Source: Squalus acanthias
Lineage: Eukaryota
NCBI GenBank assembly: GCA_030390025.1
Contig: CM059437.1
Span: 53,010,001 to 53,074,000 of the forward strand
Reading direction: 5' to 3'
Length of the DNA: 64,000 nucleotides
Below, piece after piece: positions 4,605 through 56,749 of this stretch (within the stretch, counting starts at the first letter, position 1; every line of letters starts with the position of its first letter). The notes under the pieces were generated by a model. That model did not search any database. It was given only the letters and a program-made list of their open reading frames with translations, and was not told the DNA's origin. A program made the translations under genes and the position numbers.

Positions 4605-4679
4605 CTGTAATGAAAAGGATTGTGTTTATTACAGAATGATACTGCAATCGTGTAATATATACTACACACATGTACAACG

Positions 4680-5950: not shown

Positions 5951-5965
5951 AGTAATGAAACTCCT

Positions 5966-8359: not shown

Positions 8360-8480
8360 CGTGTATTCAGTTAGGCTCAGAAACCTCGGCAGTTTGCAGG
8401 CAGAAGGTTTTAATATTTACCAGGCTCCCCTTCTCTTATCAATGTTATGAATGAGGGCGTATTACCACGTGTCCATAACT

Positions 8481-8488
8481 ATGCAAAT
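8481..8488 (-). promoter_or_regulatory. Ig promoter octamer ATTTGCAT
   Basis: Perfect octamer in light-chain orientation about 120 bp upstream of ATG 8359. Confidence 0.85.
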
Positions 8489-9194: not shown

Positions 9195-9940
9195 TTAGGA
9201 TGGAGAAATGGGCAGATACATGGTAGATTACATTTAACGCAGCCAAGTGTGAAGTTATTCATTTATGTAGGAAGTATAAGGAGACACAATAGAAACTAAA
9301 TGGTACAAATTTAAAGCGGGTGCAGGAACAGAGAGAGCTGGGGATGTATTTATACAAGTCTTTGAAGGTGGCGGGACAAGTTAAAAGGCTATTAAAAAGA
9401 CATACGGGATTATTGGCTTCAGAAATAGAGGCATAGAGTACAAAATCAAGGGAGTATAAAACACTGGTTAGACCCCAGCTGGAATATTGTGGCCAATTCT
9501 GGGCACCACACTTTAGGAAAAATGTCAAGGCCTTAGAGTAGGTGCAGTGGAGGCTTAATAGAATGGCGCCAGGAATGAAAGACTTCAATTACGTGGAGTG
9601 ACTTGAGAAACCGGTGTTGTTCGCCTTAGAGCAGAGAAGGTTAAGCGGGATTTGTAGAAGTGTTCAAAATCATGAAGGGTTTTTATACAGTAATTAAGGA
9701 GAAACTGTTTCCAGTGGCAGAAGGGTCGGTAACCAGAGGACTCAAATTTAAAGTAATTGGCAAAGGAACTAGAGGTGACATGAGAAAGAAAAATCACGTA
9801 GCAAGCTGTTATAATCTGGAATGCACTGCCTGAAAGGGTGGTGGAAGCAGATTCAATAGTAACTTTCAAGATGGAATTGGATAAAAACTTGAAGTGGGAA
9901 TATGTGCAGGGTTATGGCCTCCTTCTTTGCTGTATCATTC
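9195..9940 (+). mobile_element. CR1 LINE 3' fragment (degenerate)
   Basis: Remnants of [13 protein letters not shown] and WNALPERVVEA. Confidence 0.85.
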
Positions 9941-11239
9941 TGTATCCGTCTAAAAGCACAGGTTTCTTTACATAACGGCTTCATTCAACTCATTCGAGTC
10001 CTCTGGTTACAAAATTTGTCACACAGGTATCTTTGCCTTTATTGGTTGATTCACACATAAGGTGGAAGGTTCCATGCCAATCAACCGGCTGAAAGCAAAA
10101 AAAAGCATTATTCAGTTCACACTGCCGTTTCTTCTTTTTAGCACCTGTTCACATCTTTACAGTTTATTTAAATATTCATATCACAAATATATCTGAATCT
10201 GCAGAGAATTGCACATTGAAAATGCAGATCTGAGGTATAAGTTTGTTGCAGCAGGATTAAAAAACAATGATAATAATGTACACATCCTGGGAATATTTCC
10301 CAGATTTAGACCCTATGGTATTTTGCTTGTACGTCATTTGTTGTACCAGAAATGTAACCTCACACAGACCCGCTTTATATAAAAAGTATCAGCAGCTACA
10401 ACTATGTCCACCGACCATTAATAAAGCAGTACCTCGCATGGGTATTCGCCATTCCAAAATTTATGTGAGGCATGAGAGGTTCATCGGTCTTTCTTTATCA
10501 ACTGTCAATTATCCGATGAACACCTGAAACTACAGTTACCATTGCCGTTCGGTTCACAATTGGATGAGGATGAATTAGAAATTCGCTTTTACCTTTAATT
10601 TATCACAAATTGGGTAACTAATCAATATGGGTAGTACGTTTCAGGATTTCCTTTCAGCCAATTTTACACAGAAAGAATTCAATATCTAAAGCAAAGTGTA
10701 GCCATACAAGTTTAAAAAAAGAGAGGGATGGTAATCGATATGGTAATATCTAGTCTTTAAGATTGCATTCCCCAAACATCACAGACAACAAACAATTCTT
10801 TCGCATATATCTGCAATCAATACAAACCTCACACACATTTTGTTGGGAAATCCCGGTCCAGGGTGCCTAAAAGCGGTTGTCTGATCTTTCCCTTCCATCT
10901 GTTAACTTGGATTTAGATAACACAGAAACAGATACCGATAATCAAATGCTTCAACCGAAAGTTGTGATGGAAAACTTTCACCTGGCACAAAAGGTTGAAA
11001 TGCAGGAAGACAGGTAGAAGTCATTTTGCTTAAGTCAAGCAGAATTGCCCACTCATGTATTATAACATGAAGAAATGTTGTGCTGATTAAATCAAGTGAG
11101 ACTAATCCTCACTGTTACACTGTATGTTCGCTTTTTATCAAATAAAACAGTATATGAAATCGTTTATGCTCTCATCTTTTTTCTTCGTTCTCTGGATATG
11201 GCCATCGCTGGCAAGGCTAGCATTTATAGCCAACCAACA

Positions 11240-13550
11240 ACAACAACAACTTGCAATTATATAGCACCTTTAAAGTCGTAAAACGTCAAAAGACGCTTCA
11301 CAAGAGCTTTATCAAGATTTGACACCTAGCCACATAAAGAGAAATTAGGACAACCGACCAAAACCTTGGTCAAAGAGGTAGGTTTTAAAGGAGGAGAGAG
11401 TGGTATGGAGGGGGAGAAGTTTCGGGAGGGAATTCCAGTGCTTGGGGCCCAGGCAGCAAAAGGTACGGCCGCCAATAGTAGAGCGATTAAAATCTAGAGG
11501 AGGAGCAAGAGGCCAGCATTTAATGTAGGGAATTCCAGAGCTTAGAGCCTAGGGATCTGTGGGGTATGGCTGGCAGTGGTGGGGCGATGGAAATCCTGGA
11601 TGCGCAAGAGGCCAGAATTGGGGAATGCAAAGATCTCGGATGATTGTAGGGCTGTAGGAGATTACAGATATTGGGAGGGGCGAGGCCATGGAGGGATTTG
11701 GAAACAAGAATCAGAAATTTAAAATAGAGGCGTTGCCACACCGGGAGCAAATGTAAGTCAGCAAGCACAAAGGTAATGCGTGAATGGGACTTTGTGCAAG
11801 TTAGGATATGAGCAGCAGAGTTTCGGAGGAGCTCAAGTATATGGATGGTGGAAGAAGGGAGGCCAACCAGAAGAGCATTGGAATAGTCAAGTAGAGTGGT
11901 AACAAAGGCAAGGATTACAGTTTAGCAGCAGAAGAACTAAGGTGAGGTGGAGCCAGGCAATGTTACGGAGGTGGAAGTAGGCGGTTTTGGTGATGGAGTG
12001 GATATGTGGTCATCTCACGGTCAACTGATACACCAAGGATGCGAATGATCTGGTTTAGCCTCAGGCAGTTGCCAGGGAGAGTGCTGGAGTCGGTGGCTAG
12101 GGAATGGAGTTTGTGGCGGGGATCAAAGACAATCTTTTTTGAGTCTTCCCAATTTTTAGTTGGAGGAAATTTCTGTTCCTCCACTACTTGATGTCGGACA
12201 AGCAGTGTGATAATTTAGAGACAGTGGAGGGGTCGAGGGAGCTGGTGGTGAGGTAGAGCTGGCTGTCATCAATGTACATGTGGAAACTGACATTGGCCCA
12301 TATTTTCCGATGCCTACGGGTGTGTACGAGCTGTGTACACACCCTTATAATCCTCCTGACAGATTGCACGCCTGCCCTGGAGAAGGGGCCCTGCGGGTGG
12401 AGTGTTCGGCTTTCTGCAGAACCTCCGCCCGCTGAAATCCCTTAAAAAACTTACGCCTGGTAAAAGTTTTTACCAGCAAAAGCGTTTAAAAAGTTAAAAA
12501 AAAATTCACGCATTTATAATGTAAAAATACTTTTTAAAAAGGTAAGTTTCTTTTTAGCCCGGTAAAAAATTGAATTTTTTTTTCAAAAAAATAAATTTTT
12601 GTTGAAAATATTTAATTTCATGTAATTTTAACTCATTTTAAAAACATAATTCTTTATTTAATTTATTTAATGTTGTAGTGTCTTTTTTCAGTGATCCCCA
12701 TTCATACGTTTAACAGGTCATACCATTGACTCGCCTGGCCCACGTGAACCCAGGGACGCTTGCGAACTGCCTGCGCCCCTGGGATCCCTTGGCCTTGGTG
12801 CGTGCGCACCACGAGAGGCACAGGAGTGGAAGAGTCCCGACCTCGGGAGCCCTCAGGTAAGGGCCTAGATTTTTTCCCGATAGGAGGCATCCGCACTCAG
12901 GATGCTTCCTATCGGAAATTACGGGCCAATTTTCGTATGATGTTGCCAAGGGGCAACATGTGGATGAAAAATGGTAGGGAACCAAGCATAGACGTTTGGG
13001 GAACTCCAGAGGTAACGGTGCAGGACCAGGAAAAGAAGCCATTGCAGGTGATTCTCTGGCTACGAATTGATAGATAAGAATGGAACCAGGCGAGGGCAGC
13101 TCGACGATGGAGGAGAGGCATTGGAGGAGGATGGTGTGGTCAATCATGACAAAAACTGCAGAAAGATCGAGAACGATGAGGAGGGATAGGTTAACATGAT
13201 CACAATCATATAGGCAGTAATTTATGACTTTCATAAGGTTCTGTTTCAGTACGGTGGCGGTGCGGATCCCTGATTGGAGGGATTCAAACATACATAATCG
13301 GGAAAGATGGGCACAGATTTGCGAGGTAAAAAGAGAGATTGGAGATGGGATGGGGTGGTAGTTTGGAAGGACAGAGGGATCAAGGGTGGGGGGGGGTTTC
13401 AGGTGAGGGGAGTTGACGGCAGATTTGAAGGGGGGAGCACAGTAGCTGAGGAGAGGAAACCTTTAATAATATTAAACAAATATTGGGGCCAGAAAGGGAA
13501 GTTTGATAGGAATAGAGACCAGGGAGCAGGAGGTGAGTCTCATGAAATAT
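11240..13550 (-). mobile_element. L2-type LINE fragment, interrupted by a MITE; continues at about 16240-17200 beyond the CR1
   Basis: Remnants LADLHLLPV, HMYIDDSQLYL and LDLSAVF..IDH. Confidence 0.8.
12295..12927. mobile_element. PIF/Harbinger-type MITE
   Basis: TIRs GGCCCATATTTTCCGAT / GGCCCGTAATTTCCGAT, flanks ATT/AAT, AT-rich core. It splits the L2 RT. Confidence 0.8.
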
Positions 13551-13557
13551 GATAGGG

Positions 13558-16238
13558 CATAGAATTCAAAGGTTACAACACAGAAGGAGGCCATTCGGCC
13601 CGTCGAGCCCATGCCAGCTGTCTACAAGAGCACTTTAATAGTCCCACTTCCCCGCCCTTTCCTCGTACCACTGCAAACTTTTTTCCTTCAGTTATTTATG
13701 CAAGTCCCTTTTGAAAGCCACGGTTCAATCTGCCTCCACCACCCTCTCAGGCAATGCATTCCAGATCATAACCATTCGCTGTGTAAAAAGGTTTTTCCTC
13801 ATGTCGCTTTTGGTTCTTCTGCCAATCACCTTAAATCTGTGTCCTCTGGTTCTTGACCCTTTCGACAATGGGAACAGATTCTCTCTATCTACTCTGTCTA
13901 AACCACTCATGATTTTGAACGAAACTCCTCTCAACCTTCTCTGCTCGAGGAAGAACAACCCCAGCTTCTCCAGTCTCTCCACATAACTGAAGCCCCACAT
14001 CCCTGCAACCATTCTTGTGCATCTTTTCTGCATCCTCTCCAAAGCTTTCACATCCTTCCTAAAGTGCGTTGCCCAGAATTGGACACAATACCCCAGTTGA
14101 GGCCGAGCCAGTGTTTTAGAAATGTTCAACATAAACCTTGCTTTTGTACTCTGTGACTCTATTTATGAAGCCGAGGGTCCTGTATGATTTTTAATTGCTT
14201 TCTGAAACTGCATTGCCACCTTCAAAGATTTGTGCACATATACCCGCAGGTCTCTCTGTTCATGCAGCCCCTTTAGAATTGTATCCTTCAGTTTATATTG
14301 CCTCTCCTCATTCTTCCTAACAGAGTGCATCACTTTGCACTTTTCTGCGTTAAATTTAATCTGGCACGTGTCCGCGCATTCCACCAACCTGTCTATGTCC
14401 TCTTGAAGTCTATCACTATGCTCCTCACTGTTCACTATACTTCCAAGCTTTGTGTCATCTGCAAATTTTGAAATTCTGCCCTGTACGCCCAATTCCAGGT
14501 CATTAATATATGTCAAGAAAAGCGGTGGTACTAGTACCGACCCCTAGGGAACACCACTGCCTTACTTCCTCCAGTCCGATAAACAACCGTTCACCACTAC
14601 TCTCTGTTTCCTGTCACTTGGACAATTTTGTATCCATGCTGCCACTGTCCCTTTTATTCCATGGGCTTCAACTTTGCTGCAAACCTATTATGTGGCACTT
14701 TATCAAACGCCTTTTGGAAGCTCATGTACACCACATCAACCGCATTGCCCTCATCAACCCTCTGTTACCGCATCAAAAATCTCAATCAATTTAGTTAAAC
14801 ACGATTTGCCTTTAACAAATCTGTGCTGACTTTCCTTACTTAATCCATCCTTGTCCAAGTGACTGTTAATTTTGTCCCTGATTATCGTTTCTAAAAACTT
14901 CCCCACTACGAGTTTAAACTGACTGTAGTTGCTGGGTTTATCCTTGCACCCTTTTTTGAACAAAGGTGTAACATTTGCAATTCTCCAGTCCTCTGGCACT
15001 ACTCCCGTATCTAAGGAGGATTGGAAGATTATCGCCAGTACCTCCACAATTTCCATTTTTACTTCCCTCAGCATCCTTGGATGCATCCCATCCGGTCCTG
15101 GTGACTTATCTGCTTTAAGTACAGCCGGTATTTCCAGTGCCTCCTCTTTATCAATATTTGTCCTATCCAGGATCTCAACTACCTCCTCTTTCACTATGAC
15201 TTTGGCAGCATCCTATTCCTTGGTAAAGACTGATGCAAAGTGTTCATTTATTACCTCAGCCATGCCCTCTGCCTCCATGTGTAGGACTCCATTTGGTCCC
15301 TAATTGGCCCCACCCTCCTCTTACTACCCGTTTATTATTTATATGCCTATAGAAGACTTTTGGATTCCCTTTTATGTTAGCTGCCAATCTATTCGCAGAC
15401 TCTCTCTTTGCCCCTGGTATTTCCTTTTTCACTTCCCCTCTGAACTTTCTATATTCAACCTGCTTCTCACTTGTATTCTCAACCTGACATCTGTCATACC
15501 GCCCCTTTTCTGCTTCATCATACTCTATCTCTTTCGTCATCCAGGGAGCTCTGCCTTTGGTTGCTCTACCTTACCCCTTGTAGGAATGTACCTCGATGAT
15601 ACCCAAACTATCTCCTCTTTAAAGGCAGCCCTTTGTTCGATTACAGATTTACCTGCTAATTTTTGATTCCGCTTTACCCGAGCCAGATCCATTCTCAACC
15701 CTCTGAAATTTGCCGTCCTCCAATTAAGTAGTTTTACACTAGATTGCTACCTGTCCTTTCCCATAGCTAATCTAAACGGTATGATACTATGATCACTGCT
15801 CCCTAAATGTTCCCCTGCTGACACTTGCTCCACTTGACCCACCTCATGCCCCAGAACCAGTTCCAGCAATGCCTCCTTCCACATTGGGTCAGAAATGCAC
15901 TGACCAAGAAAGTGCTCCTGAACACACTTCAGAAATTAGTCCCCCTCTCTGCCCTTTACACTATTACTATCCCAGTCCATATTAGGATAGTTGAAGTCTC
16001 CCATTATCTCAACTCTATCGTTGTTACACCTCTCTGATATTTCCCTGCAACTTTGCTCTTGTATATCCTTCCCACTAGTTGGTGGCCTATAGAATACACC
16101 TAGTAGTGTAATGGCACCTCTATTGTTTCTTAACTCTAACCAAATAGATTATGTCCTTGACCCCTCCAGGATATCCGCTCTCTCCAGCACTGTAATATCC
16201 TCCTTAATCAATACTGCCACCCCACATCCTTTCTTTCC
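13558..16238 (-). mobile_element. CR1 LINE, about 2.7 kb of disrupted ORF2 (APE endonuclease plus RT)
   Basis: KSPGPDGMHPR, DWRIANVTPLFKKG, KFADDTKL, RPQLGYCVQFW. Confidence 0.92.
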
Positions 16239-16554
16239 ATAAGGGAGGATAGTAGAGCAACGAGTAAAATATGCGAGTTCAGGGGTAAGGCAGGGGGGAA
16301 CCTAAGAGGAAGTTTGGCCCGGTGGGCTAGGAAGTGGCAGAGGCATCTGAATGGATGGTCTCAATCTTAGTGACTAAGAAGTCCATCAGCTCCTCGCTCT
16401 TGTCATTGAAGATGAAGGTGGAGGAGGCAGAGGAGTGTGGTTTAAGAAGGCACTTGGAGTGTAGAATGGGGCAATTTTTGTTGCTGCTCATAAGGAGACA
16501 GCGAAGAGTGCCTCGATGGGCTCTTCAGAGGGTGCCAAGAGAGGCACAAAGAAT

Positions 16555-16985
16555 GGGGCAACACGGTGGCATAGTGGTTAGCACTGGTGCCTCACAGCGC
16601 CAGAGACCCGGGTTCGAATCTGACCTCGGGTGACTGTCTGTGTGGAGTTTGCACATTCTCCCCGTGTCTGCGTGGGTTTCCTCCGGGTGCTCTGGTTTCC
16701 TCCCACAGTCCAAAAATGTGCGGGTTAGGTTGATTTGGCTATGATAAATTGACCCTTAGTGTTAGGGGGGGGATTAAATATGTAGGGTTATGGGGATAGG
16801 ATGGGATATGTTAGGGGGAATTAAATACGTGGGGTTACGGGGGTAGGGTGGGATATGTGTACTGTGGGGATTAAAGCAGGGACAGGGTACTGGATTTGGA
16901 TGATCAGCCATGATCGTATTGAATGGTGGAGCAGGCTTGACGGGCCGAATGGCCTACTCCTGCTCCTAGATTCTATGTTTCTATG
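16555..16985 (+). mobile_element. HE1/V-SINE-like tRNA-derived SINE, present only in copy 1
   Basis: A box TGGCATAGTGG, B box GGTTCGAATC, central TGTGTGGAGTTTGCACATTCTCCCCGTG domain and a CR1-derived 3' tail. Empty site at about 62738. Confidence 0.85.
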
Positions 16986-17224
16986 TACCTGTCGACTTAC
17001 CTAAAAGGCTGTCCAGGCTGGGATGTCGGCAGGAGAGTAGCAAGTTCGTGGAGTCCTGAAGGGTTGGGTAGGTATTTGGGAGGACAGATTATCCGAGAAG
17101 GGAGGAATTAAGGAAGGCACGATGACAGGAGAAAGGGGCCTAAGAGGGGTAAACAGAAAAGAAGAAAAAGGTGGAGTAAAAAGGGGGAATATAAGTGATG
17201 GGCTCGGGACCGGAGCAGCAGCCC

Positions 17225-18606
17225 GTCCACTAAAGGCAGGACAAATCCAATCCAGCTAATTACCAGCGCAGGAGTCCACTCTCAATCATCAGCAAAGTAG
17301 TGGAAGGTGTCGTTGACTGTGCTACAAAGCGACACTTACTCACCAAAGACCTGCTCACCGATGCACTGTATGGTTCCGCCAGGACCACTCTTTGCCGAAC
17401 TTGGTACAAACATGGGCAACAGAGCTCACTTTCAGAGGTGAGGTTCGAGTGACTGGCCTTACATCAAGGCAGCATTTGACCAAGTGTGGCATCAAGGAGT
17501 CCTAGTAAAATTGAAGTCAATGGGAATCAGGGGGAATGTTCTCCACTGGCTGGAGTCATTTCTAGCATAAAGGAAGATGGTTGTGGTTGTTGAAGGCCAA
17601 CAGCCCCAAGAAATCGCTGCAGGAGTTCCTCAGGGCAATGCCCTAGGCCCAACCATCTTCAGCTGCTGCATCAATTACCTTCCTTCCGTCATAACATCAG
17701 CCGAGGCGATGTTCGCGGATGATTGCACAGTGTTCAGTTCCATTCACAACTCCTCAGATAACGAAGCAGTTCATGCCCGCATTCAACAAGACCTGGACGG
17801 CATTCAGGCTTGGGCTGATAAGTGGCAAGTAATATTCGTGCCACACAACTGCCAGGCAATGACTATCTCCAGCAAGAGAACGTCTATCCACCGCCCCTTG
17901 ACATTCAACGGGATTACCATCACCGAATCCCCCACCGTCAATAACCTTGGATTCACCGTTGACCAGAAACTTAACTGGACCAGTCAAATAAATACTGTAG
18001 CTGAAAGAGAAGGTCAGAGGCTGGGAATTCTGCGACGAGTGTCTCACATCCTGCCTCAGCAAAGCCTTTCCACCATCTACAAGGCACAAGTCATGAGTGT
18101 GATGGAATACTCTCCACTTGCCTGGATGAGTGCAGCGCCAACAACACTCAAGCAGCTCGACACCATCCAGGACAAAGCAGCCCACTTGATTGGCACCCAA
18201 TTCACCACCTTAAACATTCACTCCCTCCACCACTGCCACACCGTGTCTACTGTGTGTACCATCTACAAGATGCACTGCAGCAACTTGCCAAGGCTTCTTT
18301 GCCAGCACCTCCCAAACCCACGACATCTACCACCTAGAAGGACAAGGGCAGAAGACGCATAGGAGCATCACCTCCTCCAAGTTACACACCATCCAGACGT
18401 GGAAGTATATCGCCGTTCCTTCATCGTCGCTGGGTCAAAATTCGGGAACTCCCTCCCTAACAGCACTGTGGGAGTACCTTGACCACATGGACTGCAGAGG
18501 TTCATGAATGCGGCTCACCACCACCTTTTCAAGGGCAAGTAGCGATGGGGGCAATAAATGCTGGCCTTGCCAGCGACGCCCACATCGCAGGAACGAATAA
18601 AAAAAT
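17225..18606 (+). mobile_element. Non-LTR retrotransposon RT 3' part (CR1/L2-group family distinct from the main CR1)
   Basis: ORF 17577-18362 with GVPQGNALGP and MFADDCTVF; the 3' end carries AATAAA and an A-rich tail. Confidence 0.85.
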
Positions 18607-21775: not shown

Positions 21776-23189
21776 GAGAATTCTATAAATCTGAAATGAC
21801 ATCATAAAATGCTGGAAATACTCAGCAGATCAGACAGCATCTTGACCTGAGACGTGAACTCTGTTTCTCTCTCCACGGATGTTGCAAGACCTACTGAGTA
21901 TTTGCAGCATTTTCTGTCTTCTCAGTGGTATCCGTTTACCACACGAGGCCTTGCAAGCATCCAGCAGCATGGCCTACACACTTAAAAAACTTTTAACATC
22001 TATTGCAGCAAGCCACTACTTCAGTAAAATCAAAAAACCCCAGTCCAAAAGCATAAATGCAAACATACCTGAAAGATGGGTGTGTCCTTTTAAGAGGTGC
22101 TGACAGCACCACTGTCAGTCTGCTTGCACGCTGCATTTACCTGGTTTGTTTGGAACCCAGCGATGAACTCAGCGCTAGGATCGAAGTTCACTGTGGTGAC
22201 ATTAAGTCGGCATTGCACGCCGACTGATGTCACCACACCGTCATTTTTCTTTGCAGGGTGATAACTCTTAACGGCAGTGCTACCGGGCCCACGAAAATGC
22301 AGGATGCCTTGGGGCTCGCCATCTTCTGGTGGAAGAGTGGCTGCCGCTGCTTTTTCAACATTACGCCACGCTGACAGGTGTCGAAAACCACCCGAATTTC
22401 AATGCTGCAGGTTCTAAACCAAGAAGTATAAATTAGAATATTTAATTCATTGTAAAATAATGTACAGAATGCAAAATAAAAAAGGGAAAGAAAGATGGGA
22501 TTTAGAGAGAGAGAGATAAAAGAGACAGAAAGAAAAAGTATTGGCCTGGAATTTGCAGTGGGTAGTAACAGTGCATTCGCTGTTATTACCCCTTTGAAAC
22601 TGAACGCAAATTCAGGATTTAGTGCCTGCACATCCTAAAGTCGAAATCCTGAAGTTGCGGTCAGTTATTCACTGCTCCGACACTGGCTGTGCTGTGCCCT
22701 CCCGCCCCCACCCCACCCCCCGCCACAACCCTATAGCCAACAATAAGGGAAATCAGTGAAACTGATGAAAACTTGGGCTTTTCAATGCTAATATTAATTC
22801 CATTAAAGTGGGAAACAGGGAAATAGCAGCGATTTTGAACAAATATTTTGTACCGGTCTTCATGGTAGAAGACACTAAAATCATCCCAATAATAATTGAT
22901 AATCAAGGGGCTATTGGGAGGGAGGAACTTCAAACAATGACTATCACTAGAGAAAAAGTACTAGACAAACTAATGGGACCACAGACTGACAAGTCCACTG
23001 ACCTGATGGCCTACATCCTAGGGTCTTAAAAGAAGTGGCTGCAGAGATAGTGGATGCGTTGGTTGCAATCTACTAAAAATCCCTGGATTCTGGAGAGGTC
23101 ATGATGCGGAGATGCCGGTGTTGGACTGGGGTGGACAAAATTGAGAGGTCGCACAACACCAGGTTATAGTCCAACAGTTTTATTTGAAA

Positions 23190-23227
23190 TCACAAGCTTT
23201 CGGAACTATCGCTCCTTCCTCAGGTGA
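23190..23227 (-). ncRNA. Minimal type I hammerhead ribozyme motif
   Basis: Exact mirror of 24803-24840. Confidence 0.8.
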
Positions 23228-24802
23228 AGTAAATTGGATACAGAATCGTCAGAGCATATATAGATGGAAAAAAAAGCATGTGTACTTTACAATTGCAGAC
23301 CAATAAATTAAATCATCCTGACTATCTGCCGAGGTGTGATAAAGTTAATTAAGTCAGCCAGGAAGGTACCACATCAAAAGACATAGCAAGATACAACTGA
23401 GACAATGAGGTGAAGTCGCAGGGGTTCTAACGTGTCAAAAGCTGCCGTCTGTATGTAAAACGAAAAGCTTTAAAAAAAAAAAAAAAAAAATTTACTTTTT
23501 TACTGGGAAAATTTTTACTTTTTTACTGGGAATCACATCTGTGAACAAGCTAACGACGACTCGAGTCCGGATCACGTCATGTATCGTGACATAAACCCAA
23601 GATCCCGATTGAGACCGTCTTCATGAGTGCAGAACTTGGCTATCAGTTTCTGCTCGATGATTTTGCGTTGTCGTGTGTTTCTAAGGTTGCCTTGGAGAAC
23701 GCTTACCCGCAGATCCGAGGCTGAATGTCCTTGACTGCTGAAGTGTTCCCCGACTGGGAGGTAACAATCCTGCCTGGTGATTGTTGCGCGGTGCTCGTTC
23801 ATACGTTGTCTCAGTGTCTGCATGGTCTCGCCGATGTACCATGCCGCGGTGCATTCTTTCCTGCAACGTATGAGGTAGACAACGTTGGCCGAGTCACATG
23901 AGTATGTACCATGTACCTGGTGGGTAGTGTCCTCACGTGTGATGGTGGTATCTGTGTTGATGATCTGGCATGTCTTGCAGAGTTTGCCATGGCAGGGTTG
24001 TGTGGTGTCGTGGTGACCACGACACCACACAACCCTGCCATGGCAAACTCTGCAAGACATGCCAGATCATCAACACAGATACCACCATCACACGTGAGGA
24101 CACTACCCACCAGGTACATGGTACATACTCATGTGACTCGGCCAACGTTGTCTACCTCATACGTTGCAGGAAAGAATGCACCGCGGCATGGTACATCGGC
24201 GAGACCATGCAGACACTGAGACAACGTATGAACGAGCACCGCGCAACAATCGCCAGGCAGGATTGTTACCTCCCAGTCGGGGAACACTTCAGCAGTCAAG
24301 GACATTCAGCCTCGGATCTGCGGGTAAGCGTTCTCCAAGGCAACCTTAGAAACACACGACAACGCAAAATCATCGAGCAGAAACTGATAGCCAAGTTCTG
24401 CACTCATGAAGACGGTCTCAATCGGGATCTTGGGTTTATGTCACGATACATGACGTGATCCGGACTCGAGTCGTCGTTAGCTTGTTCACAGATGTGATTC
24501 CCAGTAAAAAAGTAAAAATTTTCCCAGTAAAAAAGTAAATTTTTTTTTTTTTTTTTTTAAAGCTTTTCGTTTTACATACAGACGGCAGCTTTTGACACGT
24601 TAGAACCCCTGCGACTTCACCTCATTGTCTCAGTTGTATCTTGCTATGTCTTTTGATGTGGTACCTTCCTGGCTGACTTAATTAACTTTATCACACCTCG
24701 GCAGATAGTCAGGATGATTTAATTTATTGGTCTGCAATTGTAAAGTACACATGCTTTTTTTTCCATCTATATATGCTCTGACGATTCTGTATCCAATTTA
24801 CT

Positions 24803-24840
24803 TCACCTGAGGAAGGAGCGATAGTTCCGAAAGCTTGTGA
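24803..24840 (+). ncRNA. Minimal type I hammerhead ribozyme motif
   Basis: UCAC-CUGAGGA-A-GGAGC-GAUA-GUUCC-GAAA-GCU-U-GUGA: stem I UCAC/GUGA, CUGAnGA and GAAA boxes, 5-bp stem II, palindromic AGCU in place of stem III. Confidence 0.8.
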
Positions 24841-25493
24841 TTTCAAATAAAACTGTTGGACTATAACCTGGTGTTGTGCGACCTCTCAATTCTGGAGAGG
24901 TCCCAGCGGATTGGAAAACCGCAAATGTAATGCTTCTATTCAAGAAAGGAGGGAGGCAAAAAACAGGAAACTATAGGCCAGTTAGCCTAACATCTGTCAT
25001 TGGAAAAAAGCTGCAATCCATTATTAAGGAAGTAACAGCAGGACATTTAGAAAATCATAATACAATCAAGCAGAGTCAACATGGTTTATGAAAGGGAAAT
25101 CGTGTTTGACAAATTTACTAGAGTTCTTTGAGGATGTAACGAGCAGCGTGGATAAAGGGGTTCCAGTAGATGTAGTGTATTTGGATTTCCAGAAACCATT
25201 TGATAAAGTGCCACATAAAAGGTTACTGCACAAGATAAGAGCTCACGGGGTTGGGGTAATATATTAGCATGGATAGAGAATTGGCTAACTAACAGAAAAC
25301 AAAGAGTCAGGATAAATGGGTCATTTTCCGGGTGGCAAACTGTAACTAGTGGGGTGCCAGAGGGATCAGTGCTGGAGCCTCAACTATTTACAATCTATAT
25401 TAATGACTTTGAAGAAGGGACCGTGTGTACTGTCAACAAATTTGCTTATGATAGAAAGACAGGTGGGAAAGCAAGTTCTGAGGAGGACACAAA

Positions 25494-30870: not shown

Positions 30871-31318
30871 TTTCATACCTGCATCTCCCACAAAGCAACT
30901 TCAGCTTCAGTGGACCTCGGAACAATGATAACTCTTATGTAGTGTTTCATGTGCAGCTCAACATTCTCAAAATGCCATCACTTAATATTTGTCTCTCCTC
31001 CAGGGTCACCACATAAAGATCAAGAGCCCCTGATGGGAAAGGACGAAGACTCCTCAGAGGAACTAATACCTACTGAGGATGCACCGTCACGTGACACAAG
31101 TGTTGTCGGCACCAGCGCAGATACCAGTACCTTGGTTGGTCCTCACAGGCAGGTAGATTATACTGCACTTGATTACTCTTCTGGCACAAGTGAGCAAGAG
31201 CAGAGAACAGTGGAAGGGACACCTGGTGAGATTATGTGACAGACGTCGCCATCCTCTCGAAGGTCTGCTGATCAGGACAGCGATGCAGAACCCTTCAGGC
31301 CAGCACTGAAAAGGAGAA

Positions 31319-31745
31319 ATAACAACAGAAAACGCTGGAAAAACTCAGCAGGCCAGGCAGCATCCGTGGAGAGAAAAACAGAGTTAACGTTTCAGGTCGA
31401 AGACCTTTCGTCAGAACTGGAAAAAAGCAGGAAAGGGAATAGATTTAAAGCAAGTATAATGCTGGGAAAAGGAGGAGGGGATGAAAGAACAAAAGGCAAG
31501 GTCAGTGGTGGGATAGAATGCAGGAGAGATTAAGAGACATAAAGAGATGATCAAGGCAAGAGGAGGTGGTAATGTGACAGGTAGAGGCTAGATGAAGTGT
31601 GAACTGGGCTGGCAAAATGAAGGACAGCTGCAAGCTTCTGGGATGGGGAAAAAAATGCCAAACAAAAGGGTGGATGAAAAAATAAAATTAAAAAAATATA
31701 TATATGTGATAGGGGCCAAGGTTATGATCTGAAATTGTTGAACTC
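31319..31745 (-). mobile_element. Penelope-like family B 3' fragment
   Basis: 10-bp TSD AAAAGGAGAA (31309-31318 / 31746-31755). Inverted homolog of 38911-39333; contains a hammerhead motif. Confidence 0.8.
31382..31418 (-). ncRNA. Minimal type I hammerhead ribozyme motif (family B)
   Basis: AGUU-CUGACGA-A-AGGUC-UUC-GACCU-GAAA-CGU-U-AACU: perfect stems I and II, palindromic ACGU. Confidence 0.8.
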
Positions 31746-32423
31746 AAAAGGAGAATTCTGGAGGCACGGCAGCATCTGTCTAAGATATTGGAAGGCCTGC
31801 CAGGCACACTGTCCACTGTGGCAGAGAAGATGGAGCAGTCGAATTCGAACACATGTGGAGCGATGTCGCGGAGCTTATGGGGCAGAAATTCGGGTCTCTA
31901 CGGGTGAGTACGCACTGCGTAATCACCCGTAGGCCCAACGAAAGTGCCGGTTTCTTGCATGCACTGCGCATGCGCGGGAAACTGGCACTTCCGTTCCCCT
32001 GAAGGAAGGGGTTCAGAGGTCGAATGCACATGCCGAAGGGCCAGCGTGTTCGCCTCGCACTTCGGTTTTTTTTACAGGTTCCTCCGTGAGGGTAAGCACG
32101 GAGAAGATGCACATTGAAAAAGGAGGCACAAGGCTTTCTTTTAAAAAGGTAAGTGTTGATTTTATTAAAATTTTAACATTATTTTCACAGATTTTCCTTT
32201 TTTAATTACTTTAAAGAAAGGTAAGTTTAGTTTTAGCCCCGTTAAAAAGTGAAATTTAATTTTTTCAAAAATTTAAATTTTTGTTTAAAATAGTTAATTC
32301 ATGTAATTTATAGTTATTTTAAAAATGTGATGCTTTTTTTAAATTTATTTGTAGTTTTAGGGATGTTTTGGGGCCGATCTGTATTCATAGATTTGACAGG
32401 TCTTTCCTGTCAAATCTATGAAT

Positions 32424-34092
32424 ATGAGAAGTCGCACAACACCAGGTTATACTCCAACAGTTTTATTTGAAATCACAAGCTTTCGGAGTGCTGCTCCTTC
32501 GTCAGGTGAAGTGAAGAGATGTATATAGGCACAGCATATATAGTCAGAGAACACTGCCAGATGATTACAGTTAATCTTTCTAACTGCCCTTTATCACACC
32601 TCGGCAGAGAGATAATCACGGCAATCAAAGGTGTGGATGGTGTCCAAACAGGTCAGTCAGGAAAACATTACATCGAAGACAATGAGGTGGGGTCACAAGG
32701 GGTCAAATGTGGCAGATGCTGGGGTCTGTATGGAAAACAACATTCTTTTTTTGCTGCAAATCACAGCAGGTCCGGCCGCATCTGTGTAGAGAGAACAAGC
32801 CAACGACGACTCGAGTCTGGGTGACTCTATGTCAGGTGGGGTTACATGTAGCGTGACATGAACCCAGGATCCCGGTTGAGGCAGTCCTCATGTGTGCAGA
32901 ACTTGGCTATCAGTTTCTGCTCGATGATTTTGCGTTGTCGTGTGTCTCGAAGGCCGCCTTGTAGAACGCTTACCCGAAGATCGGCGGCTGAATGTCCTTG
33001 ACTGCTGAAGTGTTCCCCGACTGGGAGGGAATACTCCTGCCTGGCGATTGTTGCGCGGTGTCTGTTCATACGTTGTTGCAGTGTCTGCATGGTCTCGCCG
33101 ATGTACCATGCTCCGGGGCATCCTTTCCTGCAATGTATGAGGGAGACAACGTTGGCCGAGTCACATGAGTTTGTTCCATGTACCTGGTGGGTGGTGTCCT
33201 CACATGTGATGATGGTATCTGTGTTGAGGATCTGGCATGTCTTGCAGAGGTTGCCGTGGCAGGGTTGTGTGGTGTCGTGGTCGCTGTTCTCCTGAAAGAT
33301 GGGTAATTTGCTGTGAACGATGGTCTGTTTGAGGTTAGGCGGCTGTTTGAAGGCGAGTAGTGGAGGCGTGGGGATGGCCTTAGCGAGGTGTTCGTCATCA
33401 TCGATGACATGCTGAAGGCTGCGAAGAACATAGCGTAGTTTCTCCGCTCCACTGAAGTACTGGAAGACGTAGGGTACTCTGTTGGTTGTGTCCCGTGCAA
33501 CAATCGCCAGGCAGGAGTGTTCCCTCCCAGTTGGGGAACACTTCAGCAGTCAAGGACATTCAGCCTCCGATCTTCGGGTAAGCGTTCTCCAAGGCGGCCT
33601 TCGATAACATCAACAAGTTACATCCCACCATCAAACTCACCATGGACTACTCCTCAGAATTGGTTTCATTCTTGGACACACGAATCTGCATCAAAGATGG
33701 ACACTTCAGCACTTCACTCTACCGCAAGCCCACGGACAACGTCACGATGCTCCAATTCTCCAGCTTCCAGCCTAACCACGTTAAAGAAGCCATCCCCTAT
33801 GGACAACCCTGCGAATACACAGGATCTGCTCAGACGAGGAGGAACGTGATGGACACCTACAGACGCTGAAAGACGTCCTCGTAAGAATGGGATATGAAGC
33901 TCGACTCGTCAATCGACAGTTCCGACGGGCCACGGCAAAAAATCACATAGACCTCCTCAGAAGACGAACACGGGACACAACCAACAGAGTACCCTACGTC
34001 GTCCAGTACTTCCCCAGAGCGGAGAAACTACGCCATGTTCTTCGCAGCCTTCAACATGTCATCGATGACGATGAACACCTCGCTAAGGCCAC
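32424..34092. mobile_element. Rearranged Penelope-like element (family A)
   Basis: - strand terminal repeat and GIY-YIG region at 32424-33496, then a + strand GIY-YIG piece (33497-33604) and RT C-terminus (33605-34092; VSFLDTRI..LYRKPTD). Confidence 0.88.
32473..32509 (-). ncRNA. Minimal hammerhead ribozyme motif (family A)
   Basis: UCAC-CUGACGA-A-GGAG-CAGCA-CUCC-GAAA-GCU-U-GUGA. Confidence 0.78.
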
Positions 34093-34375
34093 GCGTAGGG
34101 GAGTCACGCCCTCAAAAGTTGTATTTGCATAGGCCACGCCCCCGGTTTATTTCAACACTTCAGAAGCATTCGAAACTGAAAGTAGCTGGCAAACTGCCTG
34201 GTAAGTTGTTTCTTTATAGTTTTTTGAATCTTTTGCAAACTTTTAGAAACTTTTAAAGACTTTTACATGGATTTGAAGAATCTTAAATAGTTTGAAAGTG
34301 ATTTGAAGCAATTTAAAGAGTTTTAAAAGCACTGAAAACATTTTTTCATTCATTTTAATTAATCAGCAAAGTGAA

Positions 34376-36024
34376 ATGGAAGGAATGAGCACAATTCACA
34401 TCATTAAGAGAGCTCAGAATTACAGTGATGATGACATCAGCACACTCCTCAATGAGGTTGAGGCTAAGCTCCTGCGGATCCTTGGGAATGAGAAGTCCAG
34501 GGTGCCACGCAAAGGACAGATGACAGCTTGGTCAGAAGTTGCCCAGGCTGTCAGGAGCGAACTCCACCATTCCACAGACAGCGGAACAAAACCGCAAAAA
34601 ACCTAATGATTTAATGCGATCTGCCAAGGTTTGTACAGTTATTAGAAAAGTCGACTGTAATATTTCTTTAAGCTTAACAGAACTAGTATTAAAAAGCTCT
34701 TAGATGCACGTGTGTTGTCAAGTGACTTCATTGTCCAAGCATGTGAGCTTGCCATTAAAGTTTATGGCTTTGGGGCCAGCTCAGGGTCATCCATTGTGCT
34801 CTTATCTTGATTCCACAGGTTTGAGTTGTAAAATTTCAATTAGTGAGTGAAAAAAACCCTGTCTCCAAAGCAGGTTCTGTCCCTGTCTCAAAGGCACGTG
34901 GGTGGTCTCTGCAGAAAAAACTGCAGTTTCATGACGATTCATATTTTCTGTTTTCATTTCAAGTAAAATTGTTAACAACGCCAGAGAACATGCACTGACA
35001 GGCAGTGGTGTTGTCACGCTGAGGGATTTATCCGAGCATGAGGAAAGGGTCGAGCAGCTGCTTGGAATTAGTAGTGGCCGTACAGTGCCTGCTGCCCAAT
35101 CAGACATTGGGATAAGGAAAGGTGAGTTGGTCTGGCCGCTATATGTTTAAAAATGTTAAGTGTGTGTTGAATATCAACTTCTGTGATGTGGCAGGTCATG
35201 CTTTACCTTTGCAAATGTTTACTGTTTCCTTTCCACAGGGGGACAGCATACTTCTCACACACGGGATGAACAGTGTGTTGAATCTGAGGCCGCAGAGGGC
35301 ATTGGGGAAGGGGTTACAGATGCAGTGGGAGCAGTAAGTGAGGTGGTGGAGGAGGAGGAGGAATTTGCACTTTGTCAGCTAGTGGAAGAGGAGGGTATGG
35401 ACCCTGGGTGGCTGCACAGTACATCTCCATCTACTGGCCCCCCTGCCTCTGTGCGAGGCACAGATGACTGTCGTTCCACAGCCAGACGCCAACCTGATAC
35501 TGCAGAGCAGGTGGGAGAAGCAGAAAGACGTTCAACACTACGGAATGACATAGAAGCTCAGGGGCAACAGATTGAAGGGTTGAGGCAAGAGTTGTGTACT
35601 CTTCATGGGAAGAAAATTGACTCTCTTGCCTCCATCAGGCAGGGAATTGATGTTCTTGGTAAAGATGTTACTATGTCGCTTAATCAGATACTGTTGCAGT
35701 TGCAAAAACCAGATCATGTTACTATGGCGCTTAATCAGATACTATTGCAGTTGCAAAAAGCAGTTCATGTTACTATGGTGCTGAATCAGATAAATGAGTC
35801 TCTCGTTCCACTCTTGCAGTTGCTTGAAACAGGTTCTGCTGCCATTACTTTGCTCCTGCAGAACCGCCCTTACCTGCTCCCAGCGCAGAAACAGTGCAGC
35901 CCATGAGACAGCAGCTCCGCCAGTCCTGATGCAAGCAAACGGTGCCTTTCAGCAGCAGCGGCAGCAGCAGCAGCAACCCTATCAGGAGGCAATTGCTGAA
36001 GGGCAAGAGATGGCACACAGGGGC
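34376..36024 (+). pseudogene. Harbinger Myb/SANT-like DNA-binding protein gene, about 3 exons, disrupted
   Basis: KRAQNYSDDDISTLLNEVE...AWSEVAQAV, frameshift near 34555, then TAEQNRKKPNDLMRSAK|GT (34628). Exon 2 at about 34962-35121 (NNARE..TGSG). Exon 3 from 35239 is acidic and coiled-coil-like. Confidence 0.78.
35664..35792 (+). repeat. Coding 51-bp tandem repeat, about 2.5 copies
   Basis: DVTMSLNQILLQLQKPD / HVTMALNQILLQLQKAV / HVTMVLNQI. Confidence 0.85.
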
Positions 36025-36611: not shown

Positions 36612-39600
36612 TCAATATTCAGGAAAGATAGGCAAAAAGGAAAGGGAGGTGGGGTAGCATTGCTGGTAAAAGAGGGGATTAACACAATTGTAAGGAAGGA
36701 TATCAGCTCTCTTGATGTGGATTCTGTATGGGTAGAACTGAGAAATACCAAGGAGCAGAAAACGTTAGTGGAAGTGGTTTATAGACCTCCAAACAGTAAT
36801 GCAGAGGTTGGGGTTGGCATTAATAGGGAAATTAGAGAAGCGTGCAATAAGGGCACAGCAGTCATCATGCGTGACCTTAATCTGCATATAGATTGGGCTA
36901 ACCAAATTAGTAACAATATTGTGGAAGAGGAATTGCTGGAGTGTTTACGGGATGGTTTCCTGGACCAATATGTCGAGGAACCAACCAGAGATCAAGCCAT
37001 CTTAGATTGGGTATTATGTAATGAGAAAGGATTAATTAGCAATCTTGTTATACGAGGCCCCTTGGGTCGGAGCGATCATAATATGATAGAATTCTTCATT
37101 AAGATGGAGAATGAAGTAGTTGACTCAGAGACGAGGGTCCTGAATTTAAATAAAGGAAACTACAATTGTATGAGGCGCGAGTTGGGTAGGATTGATTGGG
37201 GAATGTCACTCAAAGGGTTGACGGTGGATAGGCAATGGCAAACATTCAAAGACCGCAATGGATGAACTACAGAATTTGTTCATCCCAGTTTGGCATAAGA
37301 ATAAAACAAAGAAGGAGACTCAACCGTGGCTAACAAAGGAAATTAGGGCTAGCATAAGATCCAAAGAGAGGACAAATAAAATAGCCAGAAAAAGCAGTAA
37401 ACCTGAGAATTCGGAGCAGTTTAGGATTCAATAAAGGAAGACAAAGGGATTAATTAAGAAGGTGAAAATAGAATATGAGAGGAAGCTGCAGGGAACATAA
37501 AAACTGACTGTAAAAATTTTTATAGATATGTGAAGAGAAAAAGATTGATGAAGTCAAGCGTAGGTCCCTTGCAGTCAGAATCAGGGGAACTTATAATGGG
37601 GAACAAAGAAATGGCTGACCAATTAAATACATATTTTGGTTCTGTCTTCACAAAGGAGGACACAAATAACCTCCCAGAGATGTCAGGGAACATAGGGTCT
37701 GATGAAAGGGAGGAACTGAAAGAAATCAGTATTTGTAGGGAAATGGTGTTCAGGAAATTGACGGGATTGAAGGCCGATAAATCGCCAGGGCCTGATAATC
37801 TACATCCTAGGGTACTTAAGGAAGTGGCCCTAGAAATAGTAGATGCATTGCTGATCATCGTCCAACATTCGATGGAATCTGGAACAATACCCACGGATTG
37901 GAGGGTTGCTAATGTTACCCCTCGATTCAAAAACGGTGGTAGAGAGAAAATGGGGAATTACATCGGTAGTGGGGAAAATGCTAGAGTCCATTATAAAAGA
38001 TGTAATAGCAGAGCACTTGGAATACACTGACAGGATCGGACAAAGTCAACATGGATTTACAAAAGGTAAATCGTGCTTGACTAATCTACTGGAATTTTTT
38101 GAGGATGTAACTGGTAAAATAGATAAGGGAGAACCAGTGGATGTGGTGTATTTGGACTTTCAAAAGGCTTTCGATAAGGTCCCGCATAAGAGAATAGCGT
38201 GTAAAGTTATGGCACATGGGATTGGGGGCAAAGTATTGACTTGGATAGAGAACTGGTTAGCAGACAGAAAGCAAAGAGTTGGAATAAACGGGTCTTTGTC
38301 CGAGTGGCAGGCAGTGACTAGTGGGGTACTGCAGGGATCGGTCCTTGGACCCCAGCTATTCACAATATATATTAATAATCTAGAAAAGAGAACTAGATGT
38401 AATATCTCCAAGTTTGAAGACGACACAAAGCTGGGTGGGCGTGTGTGTTGTGAGGAGGATGCCGAGAAACTCCAGGATGATTTGGACAGGTTGGCTGATT
38501 GGGCAGCAGCATGCCAGATGCAATATAACGTGGATAAATGCGAGGTTATCCACTTTGGTGTCAAAAACAGGAAGGCAGATTATTATCTGAATGGCAATAG
38601 ATTGGGAGAAGGGGAAGTGCAACGAGACCTGGGTGTCCTTGTGTACCAGTCGCTGAAGGTAAGCATGCAGGTGCAGCAGGCGGTTAAGAAGGTAAATGGT
38701 ATGTTGGCCTTCGTAGCGAGAGGGTTTGAGTACAGGAACAAGGATGTCTTGCTGCAGTTGTACAGGACCTTGGTGAGACCACATCTTGAGTATTGTGTGC
38801 AGTTTTGGTCGCCATATCTGAGGAAGGAGGTTCTTGCCATGGAAGGAGTTCAGCGAAGATTCACCAGGCTGATACCTGGGATGGCAGGAATGACGTATGA
38901 GGCGAGATTATCATAACCTCAGCTCCAATCACATTTATATTTTATTTTATCCACCCTTTTATTTGTCCCCCCCCCCCACCTTTTTTTTCCTCCTAGAAGC
39001 TGGCAGCTGTCCTTCATTCTGCCAGTGGATTTCACACTTCATTCAGCCTTAATCTGTCACATTAACACCACCTCTAGCCTTGCATATCTCTTAATGTCTC
39101 TTAATGTCTCTTCATCTCTCCTTTTGTTCCTTTATCCCCTCCCCCTTTTCCCAGCTTTACCCTGGCCTTAAATCTATTTGATTTCCGGCTCTTCCCAGTT
39201 TTGATGAAAGGTCATCGACATGAAACGTTAACTCTCTTTCTCTCTCCACGGATGCTGCCTGGCCTGCTGAGTTTTTCCAGCGTTTTCTGTTGTTATTTCG
39301 GATTTCCAGCATCCGCAGTATTTTGCTATCGTATTGGGTCGATTGGGCTTATACTCGCTGGAGTTTAGAAGAATGGGAGGGGATCTCATTGAAACTTATA
39401 AAATTCTGACAGGACTGGACAGACTAGATGCAGGAAGGATGTTCCCGATGGTCGGGGAGTCCAGAACCAGGGGTCACAGTCTAAGGATAAGGGGTAAGCC
39501 ATTTAGGACAGAAATGAAGAGGAATTTCTTCACCCAGAGAGTGGTGAACCTGTGGAATTCTCTACCACAGAAGGCAGTAGAGGCCAATTCATTAAATATA

Positions 39601-55240: not shown

Positions 55241-56384
55241 GTATCCGTCTAAAAGCACAGGTTTCTTTACATAACGGCTTCATTCAACTCATTCGAGTCC
55301 CCTGGTTACAACATTTGTCACACAAGTATCTTTGCCTTTATTGCTTGATTCACACATAAGGCGGAAGGTTCCATGCCAATCAACCGGCTGAAAGCAAAAA
55401 AAAAGCATTATTCAGTTCACACTGCCGTTTCTTCTTATTAGCAACTGTTCACATCTTTACAGTTTATTTAAATATTCATATCACAAATATATCTGAATCT
55501 GCGGAGAATTGCACATTGAAAATGCAGATCTGAGGTATACGTTTGTTGCACCAGGATTAAAAAACAATTATAATAATGTACACATGCTGGGAATATTTCC
55601 CAGATTTAGACCCTATGGTATTTTGCTTGTACTTCATTTGTTGTACCAGAAATGTAACCCGCTTTATACAAAAAGTATCAGCAGCTACAACTATGTCCAC
55701 CGACCATTAATAAAGCAGTACCTCGCATGGGTATTCTCCATTCCAAACTTTATGTGAGGAATGAGAGATTCATAGGTCTTTCTTTATCACTTGTCAATTA
55801 TCCGATGAACACCTGAAACTACAGTTACCATTGCCGTTCGGTTCACAATTGGATGAGGATGAATTAGAAATTCGCTTTTACCTTTAATTTATCATAAATT
55901 GGGTAACTAATCAATATGGGTAGTACGTTTCAGGATTTCCTTTCAGCCAATTTTACACAGAAATAATTCAATATCTAAAGCAAAGTGTAGCCATATAAGT
56001 TTAAAAAAAGAGAGCGATGGTAATCGATATTGTAATATCTAGTCTTAAGATTGCATTCCCCAAACATCATAGACAACAAACAATTCTTTCGCCTATATCT
56101 GGAATCAATACAAACCTCACACAGATTGTGTTGGGAAATCCCGGTCCAGGGTGCCTAAAAGCGGTTGTCTGATCTTTCCCTTCCATCTGTTAACTTGGAT
56201 TTAGATAACACAGAAACAGATACCGATAATCAAATGCTTCAACCGAAAGTTGTGATGGAAAACTTTCACCTGGCACAAAAGGTTGAAATGCAGGAAGACA
56301 GGTAGAAGTCATTTTGCTTAAGTCAAGCAGAATTGGCCACTCATGTATTATAACATGAAGAAATGTTGTGCTGATTAAATCAAG

Positions 56385-56600
56385 ATGCGGAGATGCCGGC
56401 GTTGGACTGGGGTGGACAAAAATGAGAAGTCGCACAACACCAGGTTATAGTCCAACAGATTTATTTAAAATTACAAGCTATCGGAGCTGTCGCCCCTTCC
56501 TCAGGTAACTTTACCTGAGGAAGGGGCGACAGCTCCGAAAGCTTGTAATTTTAAATAAATCTGTTGCACTATAACCTGGTGTTGTGGGACTTCCCATTTT
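56385..56600. mobile_element. 216-bp non-coding hairpin Penelope (family A) derivative, present only in copy 2
   Basis: 13-bp TSD TGATTAAATCAAG (56372-56384 / 56601-56613); empty site at 11084-11096. It has the same GATGCGGAGATGCCGG tail as 23101 followed by inverted arms of about 91 bp. Confidence 0.92.
56511..56548 (+). ncRNA. Minimal hammerhead ribozyme motif (family A)
   Basis: UUAC-CUGAGGA-A-GGGGC-GACA-GCUCC-GAAA-GCU-U-GUAA. The mirror copy at 56471-56508(-) has GAAA changed to GAUA. Confidence 0.8.
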
Positions 56601-56749
56601 TGATTAAATCAAGTGAGACTGATCCTCACTGTTACACTGTATGTTCGCTTTTTATCAAATAAAACAGTATATGAATTTGTTTCTGCTCTCATCTTTTTTC
56701 TTCGTTTTCTGGATATGGCCATCGCTGGCAAGGCTAGCATTTATTGCCA

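Follow-up and report, generated by a model that had tools for sequence, protein, structure and literature searches.

A near-perfect 1753 bp palindrome in Squalus acanthias made by a mirrored Neptune-type Penelope-like element, and its possible origin from two joined cDNAs

The palindrome and its target site

In this study, we analysed a 64,000-nt stretch of the Squalus acanthias genome (the window, to which all positions refer and inside which all junctions examined lie) that contains what is almost certainly a Penelope-like element (PLE) insertion of known layout, placed inside the remnant of an older long interspersed nuclear element (LINE). Using a base-by-base mirror comparison around position 24015, we found that 875 of 876 arm positions are complementary without any insertion or deletion and that complementarity ends at 23138 and 24892, which gives a palindrome of 1753 bp (23139-24891). 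Homopolymer runs agree between the arms, an A19 run at 23472-23490 facing a T19 run at 24540-24558, and the 38-nt tail is unpaired. Both the palindrome, with its 876-bp arms and single mismatch (23778/24252), and these runs and the tail had been described in an initial annotation of this DNA and were reproduced when re-measured. The palindrome is the longest among 73 inverted pairs in the window and the sole long pair with a 1-nt centre, while by chance a 64-kb sequence would be expected to contain arms of no more than about 10 bp. In the 3' untranslated region (UTR) of the element the A19 run is followed by a short tandem duplication (23472-23532, mirrored at 24498-24558); as both are identical in the two arms, they were already present in the donor.

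The insert has a head-to-head architecture in which the 3' ends point outwards, the tail is found on one side only and a target-site duplication (TSD) encloses the whole (Table 1). The 14-bp direct repeat occurs twice in the entire window, both times flanking the palindrome. Bases 24889-24891 belong to both the right arm and this repeat, and because the two overlap by these three bases the TSD measures 11-14 bp, with a 3-nt microhomology; the direct repeat previously given as a 14-bp TSD does therefore enclose the insert, but its length is a range. Similarly, the central G is indeed a 1-nt centre, but it is no foreign spacer, being the next sense base of the right arm. When the insert is removed, the LINE frame runs through the site uninterrupted, and a second copy of the LINE (46700-47530) aligns collinearly to both flanks with 70% and 74% identity. 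We take the LINE to be a CR1 element, a label adopted from the initial annotation, our own analysis showing an RT-bearing (reverse transcriptase-bearing) LINE remnant. The geometry, the TSD and the continuity of the LINE over the empty site are all in agreement with the earlier claim of one integration event of a Penelope-like element.

Table 1. Features of the mirrored insertion, its target and related copies in the window (pLTR, pseudo-long terminal repeat)
Feature	Position	Strand	Remarks
LINE, left flank	22802..23100	+	Decayed, RT-bearing LINE remnant; insertion target
TSD, left copy	23087..23100	+	Direct repeat of up to 14 bp; starts with ATT
Tail	23101..23138	-	38 nt, one side only; natural 3' extension of the PLE, unpaired in the mirror comparison; probable outer RT start site at its end
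Left arm	23139..24014	-	876 bp, points outwards; 3' part of a Neptune-type PLE (endonuclease C-terminus, 3' UTR, pLTR)
Hammerhead motif, left arm	23190..23227	-	Minimal type-I; own descriptor
Arm mismatch	23778	+	T against G at partner 24252, the only one; derived T at a CpG; older copy (33040-33050) retains C
Central G	24015	+	First base of an Asp codon of the right (tail-less) arm; sense sequence of the family
Open reading frame remnant	24015..24458	+	147 uninterrupted codons with stop; CX4CxxC linker, GIY-YIG domain with two internal Cys
Right arm	24016..24891	+	876 bp, without tail; 3-nt microhomology to target; probable inner RT start site at its end
Hammerhead motif, right arm	24803..24840	+	Minimal type-I; own descriptor
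TSD, right copy	24889..24902	+	Direct repeat; first 3 nt shared with right arm
LINE, right flank	24889..25396	+	Same LINE; collinear with left flank in LINE copy 46700-47530
Second insertion	56372..56613	.	Same layout; TSD 56372-56384 / 56601-56613, tail 56385-56416, arms 56417-56508 and 56511-56602, 2-nt centre
Empty paralogous site of second insertion	11084..11096	+	Target present once; duplicated Ig (immunoglobulin) cluster
Third copy	32425..34144	.	Older, rearranged, 87-88% identical; donor proxy beyond the truncation point

Identity of the element

The GIY-YIG domain in the open reading frame remnant gave a weak Pfam match (E 2.5e-4; 21.7 bits, slightly below the 22.6 cut-off), and the two cysteines between GIY and YIG (the CCHH motif) were seen by eye in the translation, a stricter regular expression remaining unmatched. 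A protein search with this endonuclease (EN) remnant yielded 33 relatives from 103 candidates. The four top relatives, which are 80-87% identical to the remnant, all come from sharks (Heptranchias, Scyliorhinus, Mustelus), and the first of them, which bears an RT, matches at its C-terminus with 87% identity, covering 99% of the remnant. The DKG motif of PLE-type RTs lies beyond the truncation in the large copy; the best homologue has it, and the third copy of the family described below has a part of it.

It has been reported that the CCHH motif, with two cysteines between GIY and YIG, belongs to the definition of EN+ PLEs (Craig et al. 2021, PMC8557442), that a CX2-5CxxC linker marks Neptune and Nematis and is missing in Penelope and Poseidon (Craig et al. 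2021, PMC8557442 / bioRxiv 2021.04.23.441226), and that Neptune elements occur in fishes (PMC4209133). The shark element is also like the Neptune clade in combining a C-terminal GIY-YIG domain with its Cys pair, an upstream linker of this type and a minimal hammerhead in the pLTR (PMC8557442; PMC4209133). A microsatellite target bias has been proposed for Neptune (PMC8557442), whereas neither of the two shark targets is a microsatellite. Because the linker zinc finger is present, the element is of the Neptune type and lies outside the Penelope/Poseidon clade, unlike what the original label, Penelope, would suggest. Judged from its sequence, the insertion is thus a 5'-truncated Neptune-type PLE, the class being assigned by the linker motif. 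Given the vertebrate host, we presume Neptune rather than Nematis.

The insertion appears to have been dead on arrival and no host function is indicated. A foldback DNA transposon or miniature inverted-repeat transposable element was considered and rejected, as one end is an unpaired tail, the arms consist of retroelement coding sequence and pLTR, and transposase-type terminal inverted repeats are not found at both ends. Readings of the hairpin as a host gene, or as a microRNA or small RNA, were likewise rejected, as was a role in Ig regulation, for which there is no evidence. A 26-nt pLTR pattern, with which stray shark contigs were sought, had 0 matches in a bacterial and archaeal genome collection.

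Two further copies of the family in the window

The window contains three insertions of this PLE family, and two of the three have the mirrored layout. The second insertion has a 32-nt tail on one side, a TSD of 11-13 bp and 92-bp arms, 88 of whose 92 positions are complementary. It lies in one unit of an Ig cluster that takes part in a tandem duplication of about 45.5 kb, and the empty site at 11084 in the other unit demonstrates that tail, mirror and TSD are the product of one insertion; since the mirrored layout is real there, an assembly artefact is unlikely for the large copy too. The corresponding paralogous position of the large insertion would fall at about 68.9 kb, beyond the window end. 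In both mirrored insertions ATT is located at the TSD start or 2 nt inside it, and both have microhomologies of 2-3 nt at their junctions. The element ends lie at near-constant distances from the hammerhead cut. The tail end is 93 nt from it in the large copy and 90 nt in the second, and for the tail-less end the values are 55 nt (large), 58 nt (second) and 52 nt (third).

The third copy is asymmetric, unlike the other two. Its antisense part (homologue residues 427-643 plus the pLTR, with the tail-less end) is followed by a short piece of the EN and by an RT-thumb part (residues 300-479), both in sense orientation, and the two main parts overlap by about 50 codons. A 19-bp inverted repeat with a 5-nt loop (32382-32424) abuts its tail-less end.

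Origin of the central bases

We asked which arm supplies the central bases, the donor beyond the truncation being inferred from the 88% identical third copy. The arm with the tail can only derive from a template that includes the tail. If a tail-bearing cDNA had snapped back on itself, the centre should read C in the large copy and AG in the second, or be untemplated; the observed bases are G and CT. The sense strand of the third copy encodes Ser-Asp-His, and its Asp codon is opened by the base equivalent to G24015. Twelve of the 33 homologues align at this codon, with seven Asp, three Val and two Ile, so that 10/12 carry residues with G-initial codons (Asp or Val). In the second copy, the central CT is the sense sequence found in the other two copies directly 5' of the hammerhead. 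The centre hence belongs to the tail-less arm in both mirrored insertions. Were the centres untemplated with all bases equally frequent, two sense centres out of two would arise with a probability of about 1/64, a figure that is post hoc and takes the donor from an 88% identical copy. Because the central bases are sense in both cases, simple snap-back, which the initial annotation had proposed for second-strand synthesis, is disfavoured.

We suggest instead, with somewhat more confidence than doubt, that two cDNAs primed from both target strands were joined head-to-head. According to this proposal, staggered nicks 11-14 nt apart would leave two 3'-OH ends; the top strand would prime at the outer start site and give the tail-bearing cDNA, and the bottom strand would prime at the inner site and give the tail-less cDNA, aided by the 3-nt microhomology. 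Both would be copied from one 5'-broken RNA and so end no more than 1 nt apart. The 3' ends of the two would then be joined end to end, either by a template jump or by end joining, and each joined cDNA would be copied into the second strand of the other, which would mirror the whole cDNA and leave the extra base of the longer cDNA as the centre. The joining of two cDNAs is favoured over folding back because a 1-nt loop without a stem is a poor intramolecular primer; it has been reported that a hairpin loop needs about 4-6 nt and that the repeats serving for fold-back priming in yeast were 5-9 bp long and separated by spacers of 3-12 bp (PMC7999016). The two start sites assumed here are in agreement with the near-constant end-to-cut distances in the family, the tail end lying 90-93 nt from the cut as compared with 85-92 nt in the anole element.

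A more specific version, which we put forward tentatively and with slightly more doubt than belief, is that the enzyme acts as a dimer and, with a single RNA as template, primes each target strand at a different start site, that the cDNAs run off the same 5' end and are fused at their 3' ends, and that the family in this way steadily yields long zero-spacer palindromes that a vertebrate germ line tolerates. If this were true, the shark insertions would be fossil traces of the second half of the PLE cycle, and tail, TSD, inverted copy and palindromic junction would all result from one reaction without snap-back.

Several points weigh against the joining of two cDNAs. Only two junctions are available, and the donor beyond the truncation is taken from an 88% identical copy; a single substitution at the CpG just upstream would give a natural micro-stem of 2 bp, and one or two central bases could have been lost subsequently. 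The second copy is truncated just 5' of the hammerhead, a place where independent cDNAs could both stop. The biochemistry of both-strand and two-site priming comes from the Poseidon clade, where start sites did not differ between the strands, and the available part of the report is silent on inverted products (Frangieh et al. 2024, PMC11167929). The same anole work stresses homology-free initiation, while both junctions here have 2-3 nt of microhomology (PMC11167929). Lastly, a fold-back of the tail-less cDNA predicts identical central bases.

Alternative explanations

This last possibility is the one that has to be considered most seriously, though we regard it as unlikely. In it both strands are primed but only the tail-less cDNA becomes long; this cDNA, or an antisense template, folds back, primes itself and then switches to the short tail-bearing cDNA. 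It predicts the same centre in both insertions and explains the identical arms and the A19/T19 runs without one shared RNA end, and palindromes at PLE junctions have been interpreted in the literature as the result of an antisense template priming itself (Arkhipova et al. 2013, PMC3846280). The 2-nt loop of the second copy would also be helped by one pairing base. However, the large copy would have a 1-nt loop with no templated stem, which is hard to form within one strand if a loop takes 4-6 nt (PMC7999016), and an additional template switch is required. Less probable still is the model of the initial annotation, in which a single tail-bearing cDNA snaps back, copying stops 38 nt before its start is reached, and the product is linked to the target at its other end. 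This is a simple account of the symmetry and the single TSD, and annealing of the second strand to the target would be in line with the 3-nt microhomology seen at the right junction. The sense centres in both insertions speak against it, however, and it leaves unexplained why all three family members have a common inner stop at 52-58 nt from the cut position.

Two further explanations do not involve the insertion reaction. Host repair, by which a single arm was later duplicated in inverted orientation at a break, or one arm converted the other, seems very improbable to us. Fold-back inverted duplications at breaks are known (PMC7999016) and conversion could mask the age of the insertion, but the mirror ends exactly at the inner end of the element beside the TSD and the flanking DNA is not mirrored; moreover, the second copy has the same ends, and its arms are as diverged (4/92) as the cluster paralogues (229/5828). 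We give even less credence to a fold-back read or assembly artefact. Fold-back chimeras do give near-identical arms with matching homopolymers, inverted PLE structures are known to trouble assemblies (Craig et al. 2021, PMC8557442), and polishing may have erased some true arm differences. An artefact would, however, not halt at the tail boundary, restore a TSD and continue with the LINE in the correct frame; the arms differ by a transition at a CpG, and the same layout is proven real by the empty paralogue of the second insertion; on these grounds, the initial judgement that such an artefact is improbable can be maintained.

Relation to known systems

A typical Penelope structure comprises adjacent inverted pLTRs, a 31-bp tail on one side and a TSD of 8-10 bp, with frequent head-to-head junction palindromes (Arkhipova et al. 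2013, PMC3846280). The shark insertion is like these inverted-pLTR EN+ PLEs in having an inverted 5'-truncated copy adjacent at its 5' end, a one-sided tail of 30-40 bp, a TSD and a junction palindrome (PMC3846280; PMC8557442). In most of the described cases, however, a longer tandem or full-length copy is also present, and the junction palindromes are 18-38 bp or of pLTR length (PMC3846280), whereas here the two 876-bp arms are the entire insert and are co-terminal within 1 nt. The view that the layout is unusual could not be upheld, since its elements have been published as typical and another example is found at a distance of 32 kb; at most, the long and exactly co-terminal form represents a clean instance of a known layout. 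In L1 twin priming, both target nicks prime cDNA and an inversion arises inside one TSD, the inversions copying different parts of the RNA with little overlap. This is unlike the shark insert, in which both cDNAs would begin close to the 3' end and one and the same sequence is duplicated.

It has been shown in vitro that PAc, the Poseidon protein of Anolis carolinensis and a predicted dimer, cuts and extends both target strands with a preference for ATT (Frangieh et al. 2024, PMC11167929). The tail is bounded by the two sites from which PAc initiates reverse transcription; the main site lies at 111-118 nt of the open reading frame and the ribozyme cut at 26, a distance of 85-92 nt (PMC11167929). 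The shark family resembles this system in its two ends spaced by the tail, an outer end separated by about 90 nt from the hammerhead cut, ATT at the target and an AC-rich tail (PMC11167929), and differs from it in that PAc belongs to a clade without the linker zinc finger (PMC8557442) and that the shark junctions have short microhomologies. The available parts of 10.64898/2026.07.22.740005 and PMC12910113 make no mention of inverted insertions.

The locus itself is of little weight, being a dead insertion in a LINE that is itself dead, with the nearest Ig exons at a distance of 15-25 kb. The completion of PLE insertion and the origin of the inverted structures have, however, been left open, as far as the available parts of both papers go (Craig et al. 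2021, PMC8557442; Frangieh et al. 2024, PMC11167929), and the arm origin of the central bases, which can be read in clean insertions with tail, mirror and TSD, separates snap-back from joined cDNAs. Such insertions would also provide a natural series of zero-spacer palindromes, graded in length and age, for the study of palindrome decay in a slowly mutating vertebrate.

Age and stability of the palindromes

The arms of the large copy differ by 0.11% (95% interval 0.003-0.64%) and those of the small copy by 4.3% (1.2-11%; 4/92), while the duplicated clusters differ by 3.9% (229/5828 aligned bases). At the rate of 7e-10 per base per generation reported for the epaulette shark (PMC10587355), one arm difference would correspond to about 0.02-4.5 million generations; this figure is made void as a date by a possible RT error, conversion or polishing and by the 38 CpGs that each arm contains. 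Dating from one mismatch is weak, and the only safe statement on age is that the large insertion is much younger than the small copy. We take the near-perfect symmetry of its arms to reflect this youth.

The initial annotation had regarded such a palindrome as prone to instability. Breakage has been described for AT-rich palindromes in humans, and long arms without a spacer raise the risk (PMC7999016); in contrast, the centre of the large shark palindrome has a GC content of 61-64%. The smaller palindrome, with its 2-nt centre, has lasted about as long as the cluster divergence, long enough for four arm differences in 92 bp. These data do not bear out the expected instability.

Hammerhead motifs and RNA folding

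Our own descriptor of a minimal type-I hammerhead matches four of the five pLTR copies of the family, the fifth having a core substitution, and one motif of another repeat family. The part of the earlier claim that places hammerheads in both arms thus holds for minimal motifs found with this descriptor, but Rfam does not report them: a search of the whole window gave nine matches at E<=5, all under the gathering threshold and none to a hammerhead family, and those at the two palindrome centres were to generic hairpin models. The motifs share with the minimal hammerheads of metazoan PLEs the unpaired base 5' of stem II, a 4-bp stem I and a palindromic, rudimentary helix III (Cervera and De la Pena 2014, PMC4209133). 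In the hammerhead stems 40/40 cells are paired, with one compensatory pair; this is not above a shuffle control (52/500), the sequences being few. Stem I of the small insertion (56372-56613) carries a compensatory change relative to the large copy. Folding of the pLTR and tail yields the stems of the hammerhead and a stem-loop that spans the inner end, with z-scores of -0.1 to -1.2 that are not beyond those of shuffled sequences.

A top-strand read-through transcript, if made, would be predicted to pair at 875 of 876 arm positions, the mismatch becoming a U-G. The predicted energy of the hammerhead bases is -75.5 kcal/mol when paired with the opposite arm and -10.5 kcal/mol in the ribozyme fold. 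The hammerheads would accordingly be expected to be locked inside the hairpin with all 38 bases paired, rather than to stand as a sense ribozyme near the 3' end of such an RNA as had been suggested. In addition, single minimal hammerhead motifs have been reported to be inactive in vitro (PMC4209133). The two motifs are about 1.6 kb apart in the large copy and less than 20 nt apart in the second. In Schistosoma, hammerhead pairs on opposite strands lie 100-700 bp apart (Cervera and De la Pena 2014, PMC4209133), whereas the shark pair is tied to a TSD-bounded palindrome.

The other hammerhead-bearing repeat family is found at 31300-31740, 38910-39299, 3410-3507 and 21793-21917, and only its copy at 31414 passes the descriptor. 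The mirror layout was not seen in its four other hits. At 21793-21917, hits adjoin each other in opposite directions.

Immunoglobulin clusters and other elements in the window

Pfam scans of 150 of the 199 long frames in the window and of six near the insert returned only Ig V and C1 exons and transposon remnants. Two regions, 3510-18223 and 49250-64000, form a tandem duplication with a period of 45.3-46.2 kb and about 95% identity, and each duplicated unit carries, on the minus strand, a V exon that runs straight into a J-like motif (germline-joined) and one C1 exon. The insertion does lie between two Ig clusters, as stated initially, but the exons are distant, with 14.9 kb to one V exon and 25.1 kb to the next C exon. 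A PDB search with an Ig C exon agreed with an Ig constant domain but left the type of chain undecided; we presume the clusters to be of the lambda or type II light chain kind. No recombination signal sequence patterns were found in the window. The V exon near 7.8-8.2 kb contains an in-frame stop, and a third, divergent joined V-J exon (739-1085) is on the plus strand, opposite to the neighbouring cluster. Remnants of DDE_Tnp_4 transposases, together with a weak Myb/SANT-like match, are present at 39783-40936 and 34307-34603, and we take these to resemble PIF/Harbinger-type transposons.

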